Shown here one piece after another: positions 1 to 47,952 of a DNA stretch of 64,000 nucleotides (positions within the stretch are counted from its first letter, which is position 1; every line of letters begins with the position of its first letter). The position numbers and the translations under genes were made by a program. The notes beneath the pieces are model-generated. The model did not search any database. It was not told the DNA's origin and saw only the letters and a list, made by a program, of their open reading frames with translations. The DNA is from Verrucomicrobiota bacterium (lineage in GTDB: Bacteria; Verrucomicrobiota; Verrucomicrobiia; Limisphaerales; JBFMBT01): assembly GCA_040754875.1 (NCBI GenBank), contig JBFMBT010000001.1, positions 3,937-67,936 on the forward strand, in the 5' to 3' direction.

Positions 1-479
1 ACACGCTCACCGACCATCTCTGGAAATACCTGCAAGATTACGCGGCTAAACACCGTGCCGCTGGCAACGGTTTTGGCTTCGGCTTGGTCACAGGCAAGGA
101 CGTTGCGCGAACGTTGAGCGCTCGTTACTACAAGGACGGTTCGGAAATCCTCATTTGGCAGGGACCAAGCAAGAACCCTCGGCGTCTCACTCCGCGAGAG
201 TGCGCTCGACTCATGGGATTTGACCGCAAGTTCATTGGCCGTGACTTCATAATTCCAGTTTCTGACACCCAAGCCTACAAGCAGTTCGGCAACTCCGTGG
301 TCGTTCCTGTTGTTGAGCGAATCGCGAAGGCTGTCGTCGCTACGCTGCGTCGACCATTAGGTCAGCGCCCGGACCTGACACTGGCGTTGACGGATGAACC
401 AAATCCAGAGGCGGCCGGTAGAACCGTGCATGCCGTGAGTTACCGTAAAGCGAGAAAACCAAGGAAAAGGGGATTGTGA
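1..479 (+). CDS. DNA (cytosine-5)-methyltransferase, C-terminal part (5' end outside window)
   Basis: The frame is open from nt 3. The translation [15 protein letters not shown] ... [14 protein letters not shown] ... [14 protein letters not shown] matches the C-terminal conserved blocks of C5-MTases (GNSV = motif X). The stop overlaps the next gene's start (GTGA at 476-479). Confidence 0.9.
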
Positions 480-1828
480 ACCTGCATCAACTTAAGTCGC
501 TATTTGTGCAAGCCGGTTGCGTTAGGCTTTACGCGAAGCCGCTGGCCGAGAACGACAATTCAAAAAACCAAGTTTATTTTGCTGGTGCGGTGGAAGCTTT
601 GCACGCATTCCCAAGCGTCCAAATCTTTGCCGAGAACACGAAAAAGAAGGGGCCGAGTTTCAAAGCACGATTAAACTTCGGATGGCTGCAAGAGAACGGC
701 ACCGTCGCGCAAGCCCCGGGAGCACAATTAATCCTCTATTCTCAATATCCGGAAGTTCGGTTTTCCGGATTTCTGGACGGATGCAAGGGGGGGCCAAATG
801 TCCTTATGGTGGACCGGAAACGGGCCGGGCGCCTTCCGCCTGAGCTACGGAAGCAGATCGTCGGTCGAATCTTATTTTTAGGGGTTACGACCGATAGACA
901 GGTTCGTGGCTTTGTCGCGGCGGGCGACTCAGAAGTAGCCTTGGAATTCAAAGCGAGTTCTTTTCCGTCGGCATTTGTAGTATTTAAAGAAATCGCGCTT
1001 CCACAAGTCGCAAGCGAGGACGACGCGCGCATGCGATTGATTGCCGAGTTAAAGCGAATCAATCGCCTTGGCTGGATCGATTCCAAGCAGCTTGATTCAG
1101 ACGGGCGGTTGAAACCTTGCACCGCCCCGCAATGTGGCGGGTTTACGCTGGAGGCTGAACTCGGTATTCCCAAGAACAGCGACGCTGAACCAGATTTTCT
1201 TGGCTGGGAGGTCAAGCAGTACGCCGTGGAAGATTTCGAGCGCATCGAGTCTGCCAAGCCGATCACTATGCTTACGCCTGAGCCGGATGGTGGCTATTAC
1301 AAGGATGTGGACGCGGAGGCGTTTATCCGCAAGTTTGGCTACGAAGACAAGAACGACAAGCCAGACCGGTTGAACTTTGGGGGTCGGCACGCTATAGGCC
1401 AGCGATGTTCGACCACGAAGTTAACTATGCAACTGGTTGGTTTCGATGTGACATCTGGCAAAATCACTAATGCAAACGGCGAGATAGCCCTAGTGAGTGC
1501 CGCAGGCGAGGTAGCGGCCTCGTGGTCTTTCCGAAAAATCCTTGAACACTGGTCGCGCAAACACACGAAAGCGGTTTATGTGCCATCAATGCGCCGCACG
1601 GAACCGCACTGGCAATACGCCTACGGCCACAAAGTGCGCCTTGCGCAACGGACGGATTCGCTCAGGTTGCTGCGCGCGTTTTCGTCGGGTGCGATGTTTT
1701 ACGATCCGGCCATCAAGCTTGAGAATGCTTCGACGCCGGACCGCAAGGTCAAGAAGAGGAGTCAATTTCGAGTCGCGTCTAAGAACATCAGCGCGCTTTA
1801 CGATTCAGTAGAAACCGTGGAATTGTGA
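476..1828 (+). CDS. putative type II restriction endonuclease (MvaI/BcnI-like PD-(D/E)XK C-terminal domain plus ~200-aa N-terminal domain)
   Basis: It is translationally coupled to the MTase and followed by vsr. [29 protein letters not shown] fits the D-x(n)-E-x-K nuclease pattern and resembles the BcnI/MvaI catalytic segment as I recall it. N-terminal [18 protein letters not shown] is reminiscent of EcoRII-N-type effector domains. Not searched. Confidence 0.6.
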
Positions 1829-1936
1829 CCGGTGATAATTCGCGTAATGAGAGAGTCAGAGTTGAGGGAAAGCGGTTTTCCCAATCAGCGTCCGTAGCAA
1901 AGATTGGCGGTTCAACTTTCTTAACGTGTCCGTCCC

Positions 1937-2578
1937 ATGCCTGACGTCTTCACCAAGGCCAAGCGTTCGCAGGTGATGTCGCGTATTCGCGGGCGCGGCA
2001 ACAAGGTCACGGAACTGGCCCTCGTGCGCGTGTTCCGCCAGCAAGGCATCACGGGGTGGAGGAGGCAGGTTTCGCTGGCGCTCAGGGTTCGGAGTTCAAA
2101 AAGACCCACCCCTGCCCCTCCGAGGAGGGGAAAAGTTCAAAGTTCAAGGTTCAAGGTTCGCAGTTCAAAAAGACCCACCCCTAACCCCTCCAAGGAGGGG
2201 AAAGTTCGAGGTTCAACGTTCACGGTTCGAGGTTCAAAAGCACCCACCCCTTACCCCTCCCGGGAGGGGAACAGAACCACGGGCATGGTGCGGCCGGATT
2301 TTGTGTTTCCGAAGTTGCGCGTGGCGGTGTTTGTGGACGGGTGTTTCTGGCACGGCTGTCCGCTGCACGCCACCAAGCCGCGCAGCAACGCCGCCTTCTG
2401 GCGCAAAAAGCTCGCGTCGAACCAGGCGCGGGATCGACTCGTCACCCGCACGTTGCGCCGGCGCGGCTGGCGCGTGTTGCGCATCTGGGAGCACGACCTG
2501 GCCCGCAAACGCCAGGGGCGATTGTTACGGATTCTTAAACCGCTGGCTGGCGCCGGCGTTGAATCGTTAAAAAGTTAA
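1937..2578 (+). CDS. vsr: very short patch repair endonuclease (Vsr) carrying an in-frame 3 x 23-aa repeat insertion
   Basis: N-terminal KAKRSQVMSRIRGRGNKVTELALVRVF and core RPDFVFPKLRVAVFVDGCFWHGCPLH ... WRVLRIWEHDL are canonical Vsr blocks. About 70 extra residues sit between them. Confidence 0.85.
   Translation: MPDVFTKAKRSQVMSRIRGRGNKVTELALVRVFRQQGITGWRRQVSLALRVRSSKRPTPAPPRRGKVQSSRFKVRSSKRPTPNPSKEGKVRGSTFTVRGSKAPTPYPSREGNRTTGMVRPDFVFPKLRVAVFVDGCFWHGCPLHATKPRSNAAFWRKKLASNQARDRLVTRTLRRRGWRVLRIWEHDLARKRQGRLLRILKPLAGAGVESLKS
2086..2272. repeat. tandem repeat, 3 copies, period exactly 69 bp, inside vsr
   Basis: Copies start at 2086, 2155 and 2224 (GGTTCGnAGTTCAAAAAGACCCACCCCT...). Each carries the palindrome CCCCTC-N4-GAGGGG and GTTCAAAGTTCAAGGTTC-type words. 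Confidence 0.9.
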
Positions 2579-2706
2579 ATCGTTGAATCGGAGGGGATTT
2601 TTTTAAACCGCTGATCGACGCTAATTTTTCGGCCTGAATTCGCGTTCATTCGCGCCATTCGCGTCAACCCACTTCGCCTTCCGAGGGCGGACAGAAAAAC
2701 ATGTGT

Positions 2707-2803
2707 CAACCGAATGCGGGTCAGACGAATGGGGAAGCGAGGAGGAATCTCCAAGTTCGGAGTTCAAAGTTCAAAGTTCCATTCGCCTGACCACATTCGG
2801 TTG
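2707..2803. repeat. ~97-nt hairpin element, copy 1 (25-26 nt arms)
   Basis: Left arm CAACCGAATGCGGGTCAGACGAATGG (2707-2732) pairs with right arm CCATTCGCCTGACCACATTCGGTTG (2779-2803). The loop holds GAGTTCAAAGTTCAAAGTTC. A near-identical copy lies at 4388-4484. Confidence 0.8.
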
Positions 2804-2980
2804 AGATTTCCGTTGTCTTGGTTCCCTTCTTCGAATTCGTGTCCATCGGTGTTCATCCGTGGTTAATCGTTGGTTGATGGTCGGGTGAGTTGAGGGTTGA
2901 GAGGCGCGACAAAATGCCAAGTCCACTGATCAAAGCACGATTCAACGATTTAACTTTTCAACGCTTCAACGCAAATCCGT

Positions 2981-3323
2981 GCCCTTTCGCGGCCATCCCC
3001 AAATTCGCGTCCTTTTGCGTCTTTGGCGGGCGATCGTCTTTATGGGGGCAATAGACAGAAAGATTGGCAGACAGAAAAATGGGGTCATGTGTCAACCGAA
3101 TGCGGGTCAGACGAATGGGGAAGCGAGGAGTTCCCTTTCGTGCTCCTCCTCGTCGTCGTCCGTCGTCCTCGTTCTTTGCGCCTTCTGTGCCCTTTCGCGG
3201 CCATCCCCAAATTCGCGTCTTTGGCGGGCGACCGTCTTTATGGGGGCAATAGACAGAAAGATTGGCAGACAGAAAAATGGGAACATGTGTCAACCGAATG
3301 CGGGTCAGACGAATGGGGAAGCG
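2981..3323. repeat. two tandem ~198-bp repeat units (left array)
   Basis: The core ATGTGTCAACCGAATGCGGGTCAGACGAATGGGGAAG recurs at 2701, 3087, 3285, 4173 and 4382. The inter-core sequence (CTCCTCCTCGTCGTCGTCCGTCGTCCTCG...CGCGGCCATCCCCAAATTCGCG...GGGGGCAATAGACAGAAAGATTGGCAGACAGAAAAATGG) is also conserved. Confidence 0.85.
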
Positions 3324-3348
3324 ATTGGAAGTGAATGATGATCGATTG

Positions 3349-4017
3349 TCACCGATTGTGGATGCGATCTGGGTTCGCTCGTAGAAAGTCCGCAAAGTCG
3401 GGTTGAATGCGCTGAATGACGGGGTCAAAGGGATAGATGACTCCGTCCTCCGCTTGCATGGCGTTTCGGGGAAAGAGGTCAAAAATCAGCAACCCGTTTC
3501 TCTCATCGTAATAGGCGCCCGGCGTGAGTGTTTCAAATCCCTTGGCAGCCATGGTTTCATCAATAGCGGCCTGCGCAGGCACGATTCCTTTGATCGCGGG
3601 TTGTGAGGTGACGATGACCGGTTTGCCTCCCTTCAGTACTACGCGCTCCAGGCGGATGTCATCGTTGAATATGATGTTCTGCAAGTTCAGCCGGTCGAGA
3701 TATTCCGCTGGAGTTGCTCCATGGCTAAACGAACCCAAGGCAATGCCGTAGCCTTTGTGTTTGCCCAATTGGGTGGCCTTTAGAACTCGATTGGACTTCT
3801 CCTCCATGCGGACGATATGCTCACCTCCGCCTACGTCGTCCTTGGGCAACCGTCCGCCTAGTTTCCGGTGGTCTTTGGCCCAGTCGATGAGACGGCGCTG
3901 CTCCGTTTCAATTCTTTGCGCGCGCTGGCGCTCAGTGGCATCGTGATCTGGAACTGGCGGAGCCCCTCCACGCGTGAAGTGAGCGGATGACTCAAGCGTC
4001 CTTTGAGCGTCGGCCAT
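3349..4017 (-). CDS. hypothetical protein, possible atypical kinase fold (polyvalent-protein-type kinase-like)
   Basis: 222-aa ORF with non-repetitive, balanced composition. GGGEHIVRMEEKSNRVLKAT looks like a Gly-rich loop plus Lys. EYLDRLNLQNIIFNDDIRLERV and IFDLFPRNAMQAEDGVIYPFDPV look like a D-x-x-P-x-N catalytic loop plus a metal Asp. The family call is from memory only. Confidence 0.45.
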   Translation of the reverse strand: MADAQRTLESSAHFTRGGAPPVPDHDATERQRAQRIETEQRRLIDWAKDHRKLGGRLPKDDVGGGEHIVRMEEKSNRVLKATQLGKHKGYGIALGSFSHGATPAEYLDRLNLQNIIFNDDIRLERVVLKGGKPVIVTSQPAIKGIVPAQAAIDETMAAKGFETLTPGAYYDERNGLLIFDLFPRNAMQAEDGVIYPFDPVIQRIQPDFADFLRANPDRIHNR

Positions 4018-4060
4018 GGCCGTTTGTTGATGGTCGTCCGGTGTGGCATGTATGTTTCAA

Positions 4061-4088
4061 ATGATAGCAGATGATCCGCCATTTGCGA
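4061..4088 (-). promoter_or_regulatory. candidate sigma70-type promoter for the 3349-4017 gene
   Basis: On the minus strand: TCGCAA (4088-4083), 16 nt, then TGcTATCAT (extended -10; TATCAT = 4066-4061), about 40 nt upstream of the ATG. Confidence 0.3.
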
Positions 4089-4139
4089 GACTTTTTAGCG
4101 CGCGAACGATCCAGGTTGGGTTGAACCGCTGATGAAGCT

Positions 4140-4484
4140 GACAGAAAGATTGGCAGACAGAAAAATGGGAACATGTGTCAACCGAATGCGGGTCAGACGA
4201 ATGGGGAAGTATTCGGAGTTCTCTTTCGTGCTCCTCCTCGTCGTCGTCCGTCGTCCTCGTCCCTTGCGCCTTCTGTGCTCTTTCGCGGCCATCCCCAAAT
4301 TCGCGTCCTTTTGCGTCTTTGGCGGGCGATCGTCTTTATGGGGGCAATAGACAGAAAGATTGGCAGACAGAAAAATGGAACATGTGTCAACCGAATGCGG
4401 GTCAGACGAATGGGGAAGCGAGGAGGAATCTCCAAGTTCGGAGTTCAAAGTTCAAAGTTCCATTCGCCTGACCACATTCGATTG
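4140..4484. repeat. two tandem ~209-bp repeat units (right array) ending in hairpin element copy 2 (4388-4484)
   Basis: Same unit and same orientation as 2981-3323. The terminal ~115 nt are near-identical to 2695-2806. Confidence 0.85.
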
Positions 4485-4560
4485 AGTTCCGGCCTGGTGG
4501 GAGGTGCGACGTCCATCACGCTTCAACGATTCAGCGCATCACGCTTCAACGCCCCCGCAT

Positions 4561-4600
4561 ACGTGGGATTACGTGGGATTACGTGGGATTACGTGGGATA
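4561..4600. repeat. 4 x 10-bp perfect tandem repeat ACGTGGGATT (last copy ends A)
   Basis: Read directly: acgtgggatt acgtgggatt acgtgggatt acgtgggata. It lies 110 bp upstream of the GT2 gene start. Confidence 0.95.
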
Positions 4601-4710
4601 ACCTGCCGGTTCCGCCCGCTTCCGCCCGATATCGGCATATATGAGCGCCGGCCGCGTTGGGCGCCAAAAAGGCTGCATCTGGTAGGCGGGTTGGCTAGAG
4701 TGCGGGCGGA

Positions 4711-5478
4711 ATGTTCAAGGGCCAGAAAGTCGTGGTGGTCATGCCGGCTTATAATGCCGCGCGGACGTTGCGCCGCACGTACGATGAGGTGATGGAGGAG
4801 GGGATCGTGGACCTGGTGATCCTGGTGGACGACGCGAGCCACGACGACACGTTCGCCATCGCCAGCGCGCTGCCGCATACGTTGACGCACCGGCACGATC
4901 GCAACCGCGGTTACGGCGGCAATCAGAAGACGTGTTACCGGATGGCGCTGGAAGCGGGGGCGGACATCGTGATCATGATTCACCCGGATTACCAGTACAC
5001 GCCCAAGCTGATTCCGGCGATGGTGTCGATCATCGGCAACGGGCTGCATCCGTGCGTGCTGGGCAGCCGCATCCTGGGGGGCTATGCGCTCCAGGGCGGG
5101 ATGCCGTGGTGGCGGTATGTGGCGAACCGTTTTCTGACGCTGGCGGAAAATATTTTGATGGGCGCGAAGTTGTCGGAGTTCCACACGGGTTACCGGGCGT
5201 TTTCCCGGGAGTTGCTGGAGCGGCTGCCGCTGGCGGAGAATTCGGATGATTTCGTGTTCGACAACCAGATGCTGGCGCAGATTTTGTGGTTTGGTTACAC
5301 GATTGCGGAGGTGAGTTGCCCGACGAAGTATTTCACGGAGGCGTCGTCGATCAATTTTGCGCGCAGCGTGAAGTATGGGTTCGGTTGCCTGGCCACGGGA
5401 CTGAGTTTCCGGCTGGCGCGGATGGGGTTGGGGAGGTCGCGGCTGTTTCCGAAGGTCCCGGCGCCGTCGGTTCCTTGA
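4711..5478 (+). CDS. family 2 glycosyltransferase
   Basis: VVVMPAYNAARTL ... LVDDASHDDT ... HRHDRNRGYGGN ... DADIVIMIHPDYQ: the GT-A/GT2 N-terminal signature including the DxD-like motif. Confidence 0.85.
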   Translation: MFKGQKVVVVMPAYNAARTLRRTYDEVMEEGIVDLVILVDDASHDDTFAIASALPHTLTHRHDRNRGYGGNQKTCYRMALEAGADIVIMIHPDYQYTPKLIPAMVSIIGNGLHPCVLGSRILGGYALQGGMPWWRYVANRFLTLAENILMGAKLSEFHTGYRAFSRELLERLPLAENSDDFVFDNQMLAQILWFGYTIAEVSCPTKYFTEASSINFARSVKYGFGCLATGLSFRLARMGLGRSRLFPKVPAPSVP

Positions 5479-5546
5479 ACGGAGTTGCCAAGGTGGCGGA
5501 CCTGCGCGAAGGTATTTTTGTCGGCGGGCGCCCGGCGACGTGTGAT

Positions 5547-6512
5547 ATGAATCGAGCGGCAGTGATTTTCGGCGTGCTTCTGGTGCTGGTCACCGCGGGG
5601 CTGGCGTACGTGATCCACACGCAGGACAAGGCGCATGCGGCGCTGGCGGCGCAATTGGCCGCGGCGCAGACGTCGAACGTTCAATTCCAGCAGGAACTGG
5701 CGGCGCGCGAAGCCGCCACCAAGGAACAAGCGGCGCGCCTGACGGCGCTCACGGAGATGCTCACCGAAACGACGGCCAAATTGAACGTTACTTCCGCGCG
5801 CCTGGCGGATTACAAAAAGCACGCCGACCAGGTGGCCGCCGAGGAGGCGGCGGCCGCGAAAAAGGAAGCGGACTTGCTGGCCAAAAAGGACGAGGTGCCC
5901 GCGCCATCCATCACCGTGACGACCGATCGTTCGGGGCGCCAGACGCAAACGTATGTTTTCCCGAAGCTGCTGGGTCCGGGCGGGCAGGTGCTGGCGGCGG
6001 AGGCGGAGTTTGGCAGCGCGTATGGGCGGCGCTTTGTGTTCAGGCGCGAAGGCGCGGCGCCGCTGGCGTTTGACGTGGATGAGTTGCACCCGGGGGTGTT
6101 GCTGCATCTGGGCCTGAAACCCGAAGCGGTGAAACAGGCGGCGGCCGAGCTGGAACAGAAGAACCGTTTGCAGGAAGCCATTTACTATCAAAAGCTGGCC
6201 GCGCGCCGGGCGGCCGAGCAGAAGGCCGCGTCCGAACAGGCGAAGTTCCAACTGGAACTGGCGAAGCTCCAGGAGGAATCGCGCAAGGCGCAGGCGGAGG
6301 AAGCGTTGCAGTTGCGCGCGGTGGAGAACGACCGGCTGCGCGCCGAGGCGACGATCCGGCAAAGCGAGGCGTCGATCAACGATCCCTGGCGCGCCCTGTT
6401 TCCGAATTACATTTTCAATTATCAGAATCCCATTTTCGTGGGACCGAACACGCAACCGGTGGAGCCTGTGCCGCAGCCGAACCCGTTTGTGCGCGATCCA
6501 CGGGCCAATTAA
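5547..6512 (+). CDS. membrane-anchored coiled-coil protein, unknown function
   Basis: Internal ATG at 5547 gives MNRAAVIFGVLLVLVTAGLAYVI (TM anchor), then A/E/K/Q-rich heptad-like sequence. The upstream part of the 5286 ORF overlaps the GT2 gene in another frame. Confidence 0.55.
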   Translation: MNRAAVIFGVLLVLVTAGLAYVIHTQDKAHAALAAQLAAAQTSNVQFQQELAAREAATKEQAARLTALTEMLTETTAKLNVTSARLADYKKHADQVAAEEAAAAKKEADLLAKKDEVPAPSITVTTDRSGRQTQTYVFPKLLGPGGQVLAAEAEFGSAYGRRFVFRREGAAPLAFDVDELHPGVLLHLGLKPEAVKQAAAELEQKNRLQEAIYYQKLAARRAAEQKAASEQAKFQLELAKLQEESRKAQAEEALQLRAVENDRLRAEATIRQSEASINDPWRALFPNYIFNYQNPIFVGPNTQPVEPVPQPNPFVRDPRAN

Positions 6513-13194: not shown

Positions 13195-13348
13195 GAAATC
13201 CGAATGCCGAAGCCCCGAATGCCGAAAGAAGGCCGAAGCCCGAATGCCGCGCATGAGTTAATGCCCGCGGCATTCAGTGCGCGCTTCGGATTTCGGATTT
13301 CGGCCTTCGGAATTCCCTCGGATTTCGGCCTTCGGAATTCGGACTTCC
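13195..13348. repeat. ~150-nt imperfect hairpin filling the BMC-H / ackA intergenic region
   Basis: The left arm is built of CCGAATGCCGAAG words and the right arm of CTTCGGATTTCGG / CTTCGGAATTCGG words. The centre is GCCGCG-N14-CGCGGC (13246-13271). Confidence 0.7.
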
Positions 13349-13352
13349 TTCC

Positions 13353-22664: not shown

Positions 22665-23328
22665 GCCCTCAGCAAGGCGTCCCTGCCATGCCTTGCGCAA
22701 AAGGAGGCTCCGGCCAACCCGGCCCCGGCCCCCCAACGATAGCGACCCGGTAGCGCATGAAACACCGCCAACCCGAGCCAGGTCTGCGCTTGGAACTCCA
22801 GGCGCCGCGCACCCCTTTGTACCCCAACTGGTTGCCCACTGGCGTCCCTTGGGTTTTGGCGTTTGCCGTCCCCAACCCTTTGCGGCGTTTTCCACCTCGT
22901 TCCACCTTTTTCCAGCCTCTTCCGTATTGCCGGAGAGATTTTTTCAGGGAGCAACGCCCTCTTGGGGCCGCGGCGGGTTCCCCCACCTCCATGATGGTTC
23001 ACGTACATCCACGTAAATCCACATCAGCCCCATGCAAAAAATTTGTTTGCGGTTCACCCGTTTTACGCCCGGCTGCCATTTCGCGTCCTTGGAGTTTGGA
23101 TTTTGCCGCTTGAAGTTTCCCGGGCATCACGCAACCGCGCCGCACGCGCTGTTCGCGGCCCCCTCCCCCCTGACGAACTCTGAACCCGAACCCTGAACCG
23201 TTGCGCCTGGACCTCGAACCAGCCTTCCAAATGGCGAATCGAATTGTAATTGTTTGCGCCTTTGGGTTATTGCACTCATTACCGTGATGAACGACTCTGA
23301 ATCAAAGGGGCTCTCTTGCGCCGGTTTC

Positions 23329-47796: not shown

Positions 47797-47797
<1 letters not shown>

Positions 47798-47952
47798 AAG
47801 CTTCAAGACTCGACTTCAAACTTTAGGGAAACCTCAATGACCAAGCTCCAAAAGCCTTGCGTGACCTTTGCACACTCGAAGCACCGCCGCATTCCGGGAG
47901 CTTGCGGGTTGAAGTTTCCTAGGAGTTTGCGTTTTGGAACTTGAAGTTTTGC
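47797..47952. repeat. long imperfect hairpin of GTTCAAAGTT-type words after glgP
   Basis: GAAGCTTCAAGACTCGACTTCAAACTTTAGGGAAACCTCAA (47797-47837) pairs with GGTTGAAGTTTCCTAGGAGTTTGCGTTTTGGAACTTGAAGTTTTGC (47907-47952). Confidence 0.6.

Follow-up and report, generated by a model that had tools for sequence, protein, structure and literature searches.

An in-frame tandem array of a composite small repeat within the vsr gene of a Verrucomicrobiota bacterium

The vsr gene and the array within it

Here, we describe a tandem array of a 69-bp repeat that lies in frame within vsr, the gene for a very-short-patch repair endonuclease (Vsr), in a Verrucomicrobiota bacterium. The analysis covers a stretch of 64,000 nucleotides (64 kb), hereafter the window, of contig JBFMBT010000001.1 in assembly GCA_040754875.1. 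Based on PF03852, a PDB sequence search and a fold search, the vsr open reading frame (ORF) occupies 1937-2578 on the plus strand and comprises 213 codons and a stop codon. It is the last of three genes that lie on one strand in the order C5 cytosine DNA methylase, MvaI/BcnI nuclease and vsr, and that thus form an operon. The methylase gene begins upstream of the window, which contains its 3' part (84-479, plus strand; Pfam PF00145, 6e-18, profile positions 264-322 of 324), and its listed TTG start is an artefact of the ORF listing; the second gene encodes a restriction endonuclease of the MvaI/BcnI family with a length of 450 aa (476-1828, plus strand; Pfam PF15515, 8e-40, full profile). Counts of CCWGG and CCSGG revealed no evident depletion in the window, and the specificity of this restriction-modification (R-M) system can, therefore, not be inferred from such counts.

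Tandem Repeats Finder returned a single array (2082-2271, plus strand) with a period of 69, 2.7 copies, 84% matches and a score of 257; the same array was recovered as direct-repeat family D10 and in pairwise alignments of its units. The original prediction, which was made from the letters of the sequence, described a repeat of 3 x 69 bp; the period, the in-frame position within the ORF and the quoted translation are all correct, while the number of copies is 2.7 because the third copy is shortened to ~50 nt. The 69-bp unit is a composite of a run of GTTCRRR heptamers and a 28-29-nt module, CCCACCCCT-N1-2-CCCCTCC-NN-GGAGGGGAA. On the plus strand, heptamer run 1 (2087-2100; GTTCGGA GTTCAAA), of which an identical 14-mer is present at 2755 and 4436, is followed by module copy 1 (2105-2132; CCCACCCCT-G-CCCCTCC-GA-GGAGGGGAA, with a 1-nt spacer), which contains a hairpin at 2115-2130 and is translated as PTPAPPRRGK. 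Based on Tandem Repeats Finder and a heptamer scan, run 2 (2135-2169; GTTCAAA GTTCAAG GTTCAAG GTTCGCA GTTCAAA) precedes module copy 2 (2174-2202; 2-nt spacer AA; hairpin at 2185-2200), which is read in a different frame from that of copy 1 to give PTPNPSKEGK, and the more degenerate run 3 (2204-2238; GTTCGAG GTTCAAC GTTCACG GTTCGAG GTTCAAA) precedes module copy 3 (2243-2271; 2-nt spacer TA; hairpin at 2254-2269), which has CCCGGG in its loop. As originally noted, each copy carries the palindrome CCCCTC-N4-GAGGGG; it occurs three times in the 64 kb (2115, 2185 and 2254), each time within the array, compared with a chance expectation of 0.24 occurrences.

Units 1 and 2 have 20 of 21 nt of the left flank in common in addition to the module, arguing that the 69-bp unit was duplicated as a whole. 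The two units differ by a +1 indel in the spacer (T-GC vs TAAC) and a -1 indel in the A-run (GGGGAAAAG vs GGGGAAAG), which lie ~17 nt apart. As a consequence, the hairpin of unit 1 is translated as PPRRG and that of units 2 and 3 as PSKEG, and the period is still 69 bp, or 23 codons. Because one module is translated in two frames within one gene, and the frame is restored, its conservation is at the level of the DNA and not of the peptide. Together, the +1/-1 indels and the conservation at the DNA level are the signature of a repeat constrained to keep the gene open, not that of a conserved peptide. On the plus strand, two of the three frames of the array are free of stop codons, and each of the minus-strand frames has two to five; therefore, only the present orientation could survive in vsr.

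The copy number of short tandem repeats is error-prone, and the array might, in principle, have been expanded or mis-joined during assembly. We regard this explanation as hardly credible: the copies differ at 14-20% of their positions in addition to the indels, such that reads could be placed uniquely; the frame is preserved; and comparable inserts are present at the same site in independent assemblies of relatives.

The protein encoded by vsr consists of three parts. Based on alignments A1 and A2 and the confidence of the structural model described below, the conserved N-terminal part (residues 1-43; 1937-2065, plus strand) ends with GITGWRR and is followed by a variable segment between GWRR and PDF (residues 44-118; 2066-2290, plus strand), which in insert-free relatives has only 7 residues; the catalytic core (2291-2578, plus strand) extends from RPDFVFP to the stop codon. 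The assignment of the host gene as vsr, as originally proposed, is well supported. PF03852 matches the protein in two stretches, which are separated by the insert, with 60 bits compared with a cut-off of 27, and in a phmmer search against the PDB residues 119-189 align to Escherichia coli Vsr (1vsr, 1odg and 1cw0; E = 3e-13). Across an alignment of 121 homologues, nine residues are invariant (D121, C136, F137, W138, H139, C141, H144, D166 and H186). Accordingly, the hallmarks of Vsr are present, i.e., the catalytic Asp of the PD motif, GCFWH with its His, a second acidic residue and four metal ligands, the latter assigned via the alignment.

In an AlphaFold2 model built on the alignment of the 121 homologues, the block-mean pLDDT is 87-94 for residues 21-50, 47-68 for residues 51-120 and 70-95 for residues 121-200; within the last of these regions, it is at least 81 except for residues 141-150. 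Residues 51-120 have no predicted secondary structure except for two strand residues at 117-118, and short strands flank the insert. The top matches of the model in Foldseek are 1cw0_A and 1vsr (probability 1.00, rmsd 1.3-2.5 Å). Judged from the conserved residues and the predicted fold, the gene encodes a Vsr endonuclease in which all hallmark residues and the Vsr fold are kept. The confidently predicted core and the unstructured insert between short strands suggest that the insert forms the loop between the first two Vsr strands; in the model, it is a predicted disordered loop at the tip of this strand pair. The insert adds ~68 residues and is strongly basic and rich in Lys, Arg, Pro and Ser. 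The basic loop of the original prediction is thus correct, and in the structural model that it called for, a confident core lies next to a disordered insert.

Compared with canonical E. coli Vsr (1vsr, 1cw0 and 1odg), the window protein has the same fold, catalytic Asp and His, FWH intercalating motif and linkage to a C5 methylase, but contains a further ~68 residues in the loop that joins the first two strands. The putative zinc ligands C136, C141, H144 and H186, which we deduce from alignment and invariance, compare with Cys66, His71, Cys73 and Cys117 in E. coli. An exact-protein look-up found no protein identical to the window Vsr on record, and the insert peptide alone had zero matches among 5.8 billion proteins.

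Other occupants of the same Vsr loop

The site of the insert is variable in Vsr relatives. Among the 120 closest homologues (59-79% identity to the window protein; alignment A2), 116 could be handled by a motif-based parser. In fourteen of these, GWRR and PDF are separated by the canonical 7 residues (HQAVFGK), consistent with the short linker that was originally assumed for the canonical form, and in 102 they are separated by 17-71 residues, a share that is inflated because the homologues were ranked using a query that included the insert. The four unparsed homologues comprise one insert-free protein (HHSICGR) and three with inserts of ~40 residues. In 80 metagenome loci, of which 61 were covered by the first parse, we found 45 with the 7-residue turn, 14 with genuine inserts and two parsing artefacts; the remaining 19 loci are mostly insert-free on inspection. 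Insert-free forms are the majority in the broader Vsr family.

The inserts of the relatives comprise 16-71 residues, are located at the identical codon position and mostly end in a similar xRVR motif ahead of PDF. Many of them have a periodicity of 7 residues (e.g., QQEVRIQKSEVRILKVR), as results from heptamers read through three frames. Others hold recognisable modules, which are sometimes nested (TSPRPSPQSGEGE, ARREPRPT, GRAALLRGPNITAAQQRRPT and LTPSPSPIRWARV). At the DNA level, we compared ten loci (loci are denoted by L numbers). The window, its closest relative (L130), L001 and L003 have the 5' part of the insert in common, i.e., TTCGCTGGCGCTCA followed by a GTTCAAR run over the first ~45 nt, and have different modules downstream from it. 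Imperfect palindromes with a length of 90-126 nt and folding energies between -39 and -62 kcal/mol are present in L005, L007, L008 and L133, and heptamers alone in L131; L132 has vsr without an insert in the same order of methylase, nuclease and vsr genes as in the window. The window's module was not found in any other Vsr among the closest homologues or the metagenome loci. Thus, both the module and its expansion to nearly three copies are lineage-specific. The common 5' part in L001, L130 and L003 together with unrelated repeats at the same codon position elsewhere argues that the site is older and has been used recurrently. The original prediction had suggested that orthologs be compared for strain specificity and envisaged the colonisation of a short linker: the in-frame repeat in a permissive loop and the specificity of the module and its triple array for this lineage stand, whereas the colonisation is not fresh and the site itself is used in many relatives.

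The recurrence of inserts at one codon position, mostly with a similar xRVR ahead of PDF, and the homology of the first ~45 nt in the window and three other loci would also fit a segment that is an old, vertically inherited linker or domain and that looks repeat-like due to low complexity. This explanation is largely refuted, and we consider it very improbable. The presence of a homologous linker in orthologues, which would speak for an old domain, applies to the site but not to the sequence: lengths and contents of the inserts differ and their sequences are unrelated, arguing against a conserved domain. In addition, conservation of the window's module is at the DNA and not the peptide level, with two frames used in one gene; filled and empty sites are discrete; the module recurs almost unchanged in DNA, most of it non-coding, of at least seven phyla (see below); and no structure is predicted for the segment.

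The filled and empty sites were observed in alignment A3 (L214 760-960, L215 297-460 and L133 10111-10290), in which vsr alleles are otherwise 85-90% identical. Here, a 53-nt hairpin module stands in place of CGGCC inside another module without target duplication, and only one of the alleles has a 30-nt right palindrome arm. As a candidate class, MITEs (miniature transposable elements with inverted repeats) were rejected: the 53-nt module replaces CGGCC without a duplication, and no direct duplication was seen at the ends of the window array when 2066-2290 was read by eye, with no formal scan made. We also dropped the general claim that each insert copies the repeats of its own genome; 12-13-mers matched their own locus only in the window and L133, and a comparison of inserts with their own loci using 10-mers was dominated by chance matches.

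The stable palindromes at this site in many relatives raise the question of whether the inserts could be useful, either by causing damped or switchable (phase-variable) expression of Vsr or by providing a basic loop that aids binding to DNA or a partner. Overproduction of Vsr is mutagenic in E. coli, and damped expression could be favoured; heptamer runs in ORFs are a classic substrate of contingency loci, and the window's loop is strongly basic. On the other hand, the window heptamers are imperfect; single units folded as RNA, on both strands, do so no better than shuffled sequence (z -0.1 to +0.9), and we claim no special structure for the unit beyond the 6-bp GC hairpin; a scan of 1700-2900 for promoter-like and terminator-like sites gave none; and neither the content nor the length of the insert is conserved, with insert-free forms prevailing in the broader family. 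Moreover, no allele frameshifted within the insert was found among the 80 metagenome loci, and together with the imperfect heptamers this led us to reject a phase-variable contingency locus. Overall, we judge a useful insert to be improbable.

A slightly better, but still small, chance is given to the possibility that the insert inactivated vsr, leaving a young pseudogene with a frame that is open by chance. The insert splits the Pfam Vsr match and places ~68 residues beside the catalytic Asp of PDF, the R-M island around vsr is decaying in several relatives, in which only truncated MvaI/BcnI fragments are present, a few relatives are clearly broken (L172 by a stop codon, L157 and L164 by frameshifts), and the array would be open in two of three plus-strand frames anyway. 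Against this possibility, all catalytic and zinc-site residues are retained, the window operon is complete with a full-length 450-aa nuclease, the +1/-1 indels restore the frame within ~17 nt, and more than 100 insert-bearing homologues have a full-length ORF with a core that is 60-79% identical to that of the window protein. Also, none of the pseudogenes observed, nor any of the 80 metagenome loci, is broken within the insert.

Two further observations concern the relatives. In L001, L005/L006, L007 and L008, the R-M island upstream of vsr (10001) consists of an HNH_2 gene and MvaI/BcnI fragments of only 185-234 aa compared with 436-450 aa for the intact nuclease, while vsr is intact; vsr, thus, seems to outlive its restriction partner in these relatives. 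At a different site, behind the WEHELA motif, homologue P0120 has a second repeat-like insertion of ~38 residues (residues ~150-190, RTPHPRPLSTPRRHLIRPPATFSPSDAEKEDLRGEGE).

The heptamers and the module outside vsr

Within the window, repeats related to the array are largely limited to heptamers. The array has exact matches of 14-19 nt in common with 2755-2779 and 4436-4460, both of which are part of one 108-nt repeat family. Based on repeat-family and heptamer scans, the first corresponds to an intergenic GTTCAAR heptamer run without a hairpin module within the 108-nt repeat D3 (2755-2782, plus strand), and the second to another intergenic GTTCAAR run in the D3 partner, which is 99% identical (4436-4463, plus strand). 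The original prediction listed four non-coding regions as members of the same word family; this is correct for the GTTCAAR heptamers of these two, while 23160-23215 contains related heptamers on the opposite strand with only three 10-mers in common with the array, and 47797-47952 has zero 10-mers in common with it. The AGACCCACCCCT-NN-CCCCTCC box is confined to the array in the 64-kb window. An Rfam search of 1-6000 of the window yielded no family at the module.

The module was searched for in other genomes using one genome per species, and was found in at least 120 loci with 148 copies among the matches listed (L010-L129). In these loci, A-CCCACCCCT-N1-2-CCCCTCC-NN-GGAGGGGAA is nearly identical in at least seven phyla (e.g., L031 6929-7005, L128, L081 2033-2181, L109 and L127). 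The hosts include Cyanobacteriota (Okeania, Moorena, Nostoc, Anabaena, Symploca, Trichodesmium and Prochloron) and Bacteroidota (Pontibacter, Rufibacter, Bacteroidales and Chitinophaga) as well as Verrucomicrobiota, Planctomycetota, Calditrichota, the UASB14/Moduliflexus group and Hydrogenedentota. Among the listed copies, 126 of 148 lie outside ORFs of at least 100 aa, 65% are solo, a further copy at a distance of at most 200 nt is direct in 23% and inverted in 22%, and 62% have the loop CA, which creates a CCAGG site. Many copies sit in heptamer arrays that are specific for their genome (GATGGGG, AGTAGGG, GAGTCGG or GGAGACA); in a strict test, 14% of the listed copies have a flank with a period of 7 compared with 1.3% of random positions, i.e., a difference of ~10-fold. 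The module is, therefore, a widespread, mostly intergenic small dispersed repeat that also forms short tandem arrays. The period-7 flanks and nearby direct copies support that the architecture seen in vsr, i.e., a module in a heptamer run and in tandem, is recurrent for this module. Consequently, the intergenic-type hairpin repeat of the original prediction is correct with respect to other genomes, but the module is unique to vsr in the window. No Rfam family was found at the module in eight module-bearing loci, and a literature search for the module sequence and its translated peptides gave no match.

In-frame copies of the module were also observed in genes for UvrA, a BatA/vWA protein, an OrfB_IS605 (TnpB-type) protein and an Ig-domain protein. 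In the UvrA gene of bacterium UASB14 (L046 3513-6479), an in-frame inverted module pair (PSWEGLGVG…PTPSPSQEGN) splits the UvrA interaction domain. In a Bacteroidales metagenome-assembled genome (MAG), a 1064-aa ORF (L049 1100-4291) consists of a DUF559 endonuclease domain, ~17 tandem 63-nt module-bearing units (KPTPDHSQEGNPKEDNPAKMI) and GcpE/IspG; here, an intergenic array that is open in frame by chance appears to fuse two genes.

By analogy, the vsr inserts would be closest in behaviour to the Rickettsia palindromic elements (RPEs), which insert into protein-coding genes without loss of the frame and at sites that the protein fold allows (PMC10969869). Like RPEs, the insert is a selfish-type palindromic repeat in an ORF that keeps the frame and adds an extra peptide, and its family is also present in non-coding DNA. 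In vsr, the array is in frame and without stop codons, has a period of 23 codons and contains compensating indels; in the AlphaFold2 model, the insert lies between two strands with a low pLDDT next to a confident core; and as for dispersal, the module is present at no fewer than 120 loci in other genomes, while in the window the heptamer part alone recurs. In contrast to RPEs, which are ~100-150 bp long and present only in Rickettsia, the building blocks in vsr are 7-nt runs and 28-53-nt modules that are nested and tandemly amplified; the module is common to at least seven phyla, and many different elements are used at one site of one gene family. A likeness to RPEs in sequence is not expected.

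The inserts also appear close to the small dispersed repeats (SDRs) of Nostoc and other cyanobacteria, which are reportedly 21-27 nt long, nested in heptameric tandem repeats and in other repeats, and present or absent in sequences that are otherwise alike. The likeness would lie in the size (28-29 vs 21-27 nt), the nesting in heptamers and the differences in presence and absence; moreover, Nostoc, Anabaena, Moorena and Okeania have many copies of the module. In contrast to SDRs, the module is also present in Bacteroidota, Verrucomicrobiota, Planctomycetota, Calditrichota and others, and lies in frame in a repair gene.

Repetitive extragenic palindromic (REP) sequences and REPINs are mobilised by RAYT (Y1) transposases (PMC3116915). 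The module resembles these short hairpin repeats, 22% of the listed copies having an inverted partner nearby, and Y1_Tnp genes are located beside the vsr islands of L001 and L005/L006; however, most of the listed copies are solo, and while REPs are normally lineage-specific, the module crosses phyla. The Y1_Tnp genes (IS200 or RAYT type; 154 aa) adjoining the vsr islands lie at 5505-5969 in L001, 819-1283 in L005 and 834-1298 in L006, and those of L001 and L005 are 87% identical; a weaker Y1_Tnp homologue is present at 2595-2935 in L056, a Verrucomicrobia MAG locus that also bears the module. Using tblastn, we found no Y1/RAYT gene in the 64-kb window.

Finally, heptanucleotide tandem repeats in Cyanobacteria, Beggiatoaceae and Bacteroidetes have been described as possible translational regulators upstream of start codons (PMC4679880). 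These resemble the arrays considered here in having 7-nt units, a mostly intergenic location, a patchy distribution among phyla and an orientation in ORFs that is limited by the stop codons of the repeat; in contrast to them, the vsr run is located within an ORF and has hairpin modules in it.

Origin of the array

Altogether, we consider it likely that the array is a lineage-specific amplification of a composite small repeat and is carried as a tolerated selfish passenger in a permissive loop of an intact Vsr. We suggest that an ancestral heptamer run, or a heptamer-built palindrome, would have entered the permissive loop in an ancestor common to some members of the clade. The heptamer run may then have acted as a landing pad or recombination partner for small hairpin modules, which would have been gained and lost there, and the 69-bp composite would have been amplified in this lineage by slipped-strand or unequal recombination. 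Selection for active Vsr would have eliminated variants that break the frame; this would explain the 23-codon period, the compensated +1/-1 indels and the use of only the stop-free orientation. According to this model, the translated loop would be a tolerated passenger sequence and not an evolved domain. We infer the order of these events, the copying mechanism and the functional neutrality of the loop.

Several points weigh against this explanation, in addition to the inflated share of insert-bearing homologues mentioned above. As two of the three plus-strand frames are open across the array, an open vsr frame counts, by itself, as weak evidence of selection. That Vsr tolerates the insert is suggested by the conserved residues and the AlphaFold2 model. 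The hairpin module and its ACCCACCCCT box are found nowhere outside the vsr array in the 64-kb window, and it is from other genomes that we infer the module to be a dispersed repeat in this particular organism. Similarly, no match to 12-13-nt words of the L005, L007 and L008 inserts was found in the surrounding 20 kb of their own loci, and a neighbour-joining tree built from the short conserved core does not have the resolution needed for counting independent gains and losses.

Beyond the array itself, we speculate that the first Vsr loop in this clade could be a natural landing pad for 28-53-nt mobile modules that enter heptanucleotide arrays, an idea that we regard as possible but doubtful. 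If it were true, the near-identity of the module in at least seven phyla would imply horizontal spread and recognition by a conserved machinery, and the filled and empty vsr alleles would offer a compact means of studying the movement of such elements.

The vsr array provides a clear and checkable case outside Rickettsia of intergenic-type small repeats that are translated within a conserved enzyme, and the relatives show that one protein loop is reused by different tiny repeats that are nested in one another. For annotation, this explains the odd lengths and split domain matches of Vsr proteins in this group. The combination of a cross-phylum module with filled and empty sites in one small gene offers an approach to how repeats of non-coding size spread and what recognises them. 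In our opinion, the most interesting point lies partly outside the array, namely in the near-identity of a 28-29-nt sequence across phyla and its entry into heptamer arrays.

Other repeats are present in the window. An intergenic palindrome (13195-13350) between a microcompartment shell gene and an acetate kinase gene has arms consisting of CCGAATG/CCGAAGC heptamers and their complement TTCGGAT/TTCGGCC, a build that is the same as that of the vsr inserts of L005 and L133. Beside the R-M operon, a gene for a Kinase-PolyVal domain protein (3349-4017, minus strand) has arrays of ~200-bp repeats on both sides, which belong to families D1, D3, D4 and D5 (region 2580-4600); the copies that flank the gene are 95-99% identical (2698-2805/4379-4486 and 3127-3222/4215-4310), and this region could be a cassette that is mobile or recombines. 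TACGTGGGAT is repeated four times in perfect tandem (4560-4599) upstream of a glycosyltransferase-like ORF. Gene content would place the source in the PVC superphylum: the window includes sulfatases, a GSDH-cytochrome c fusion and microcompartment shell genes, and PSCyt2/PSD1 is found in the relative L133.

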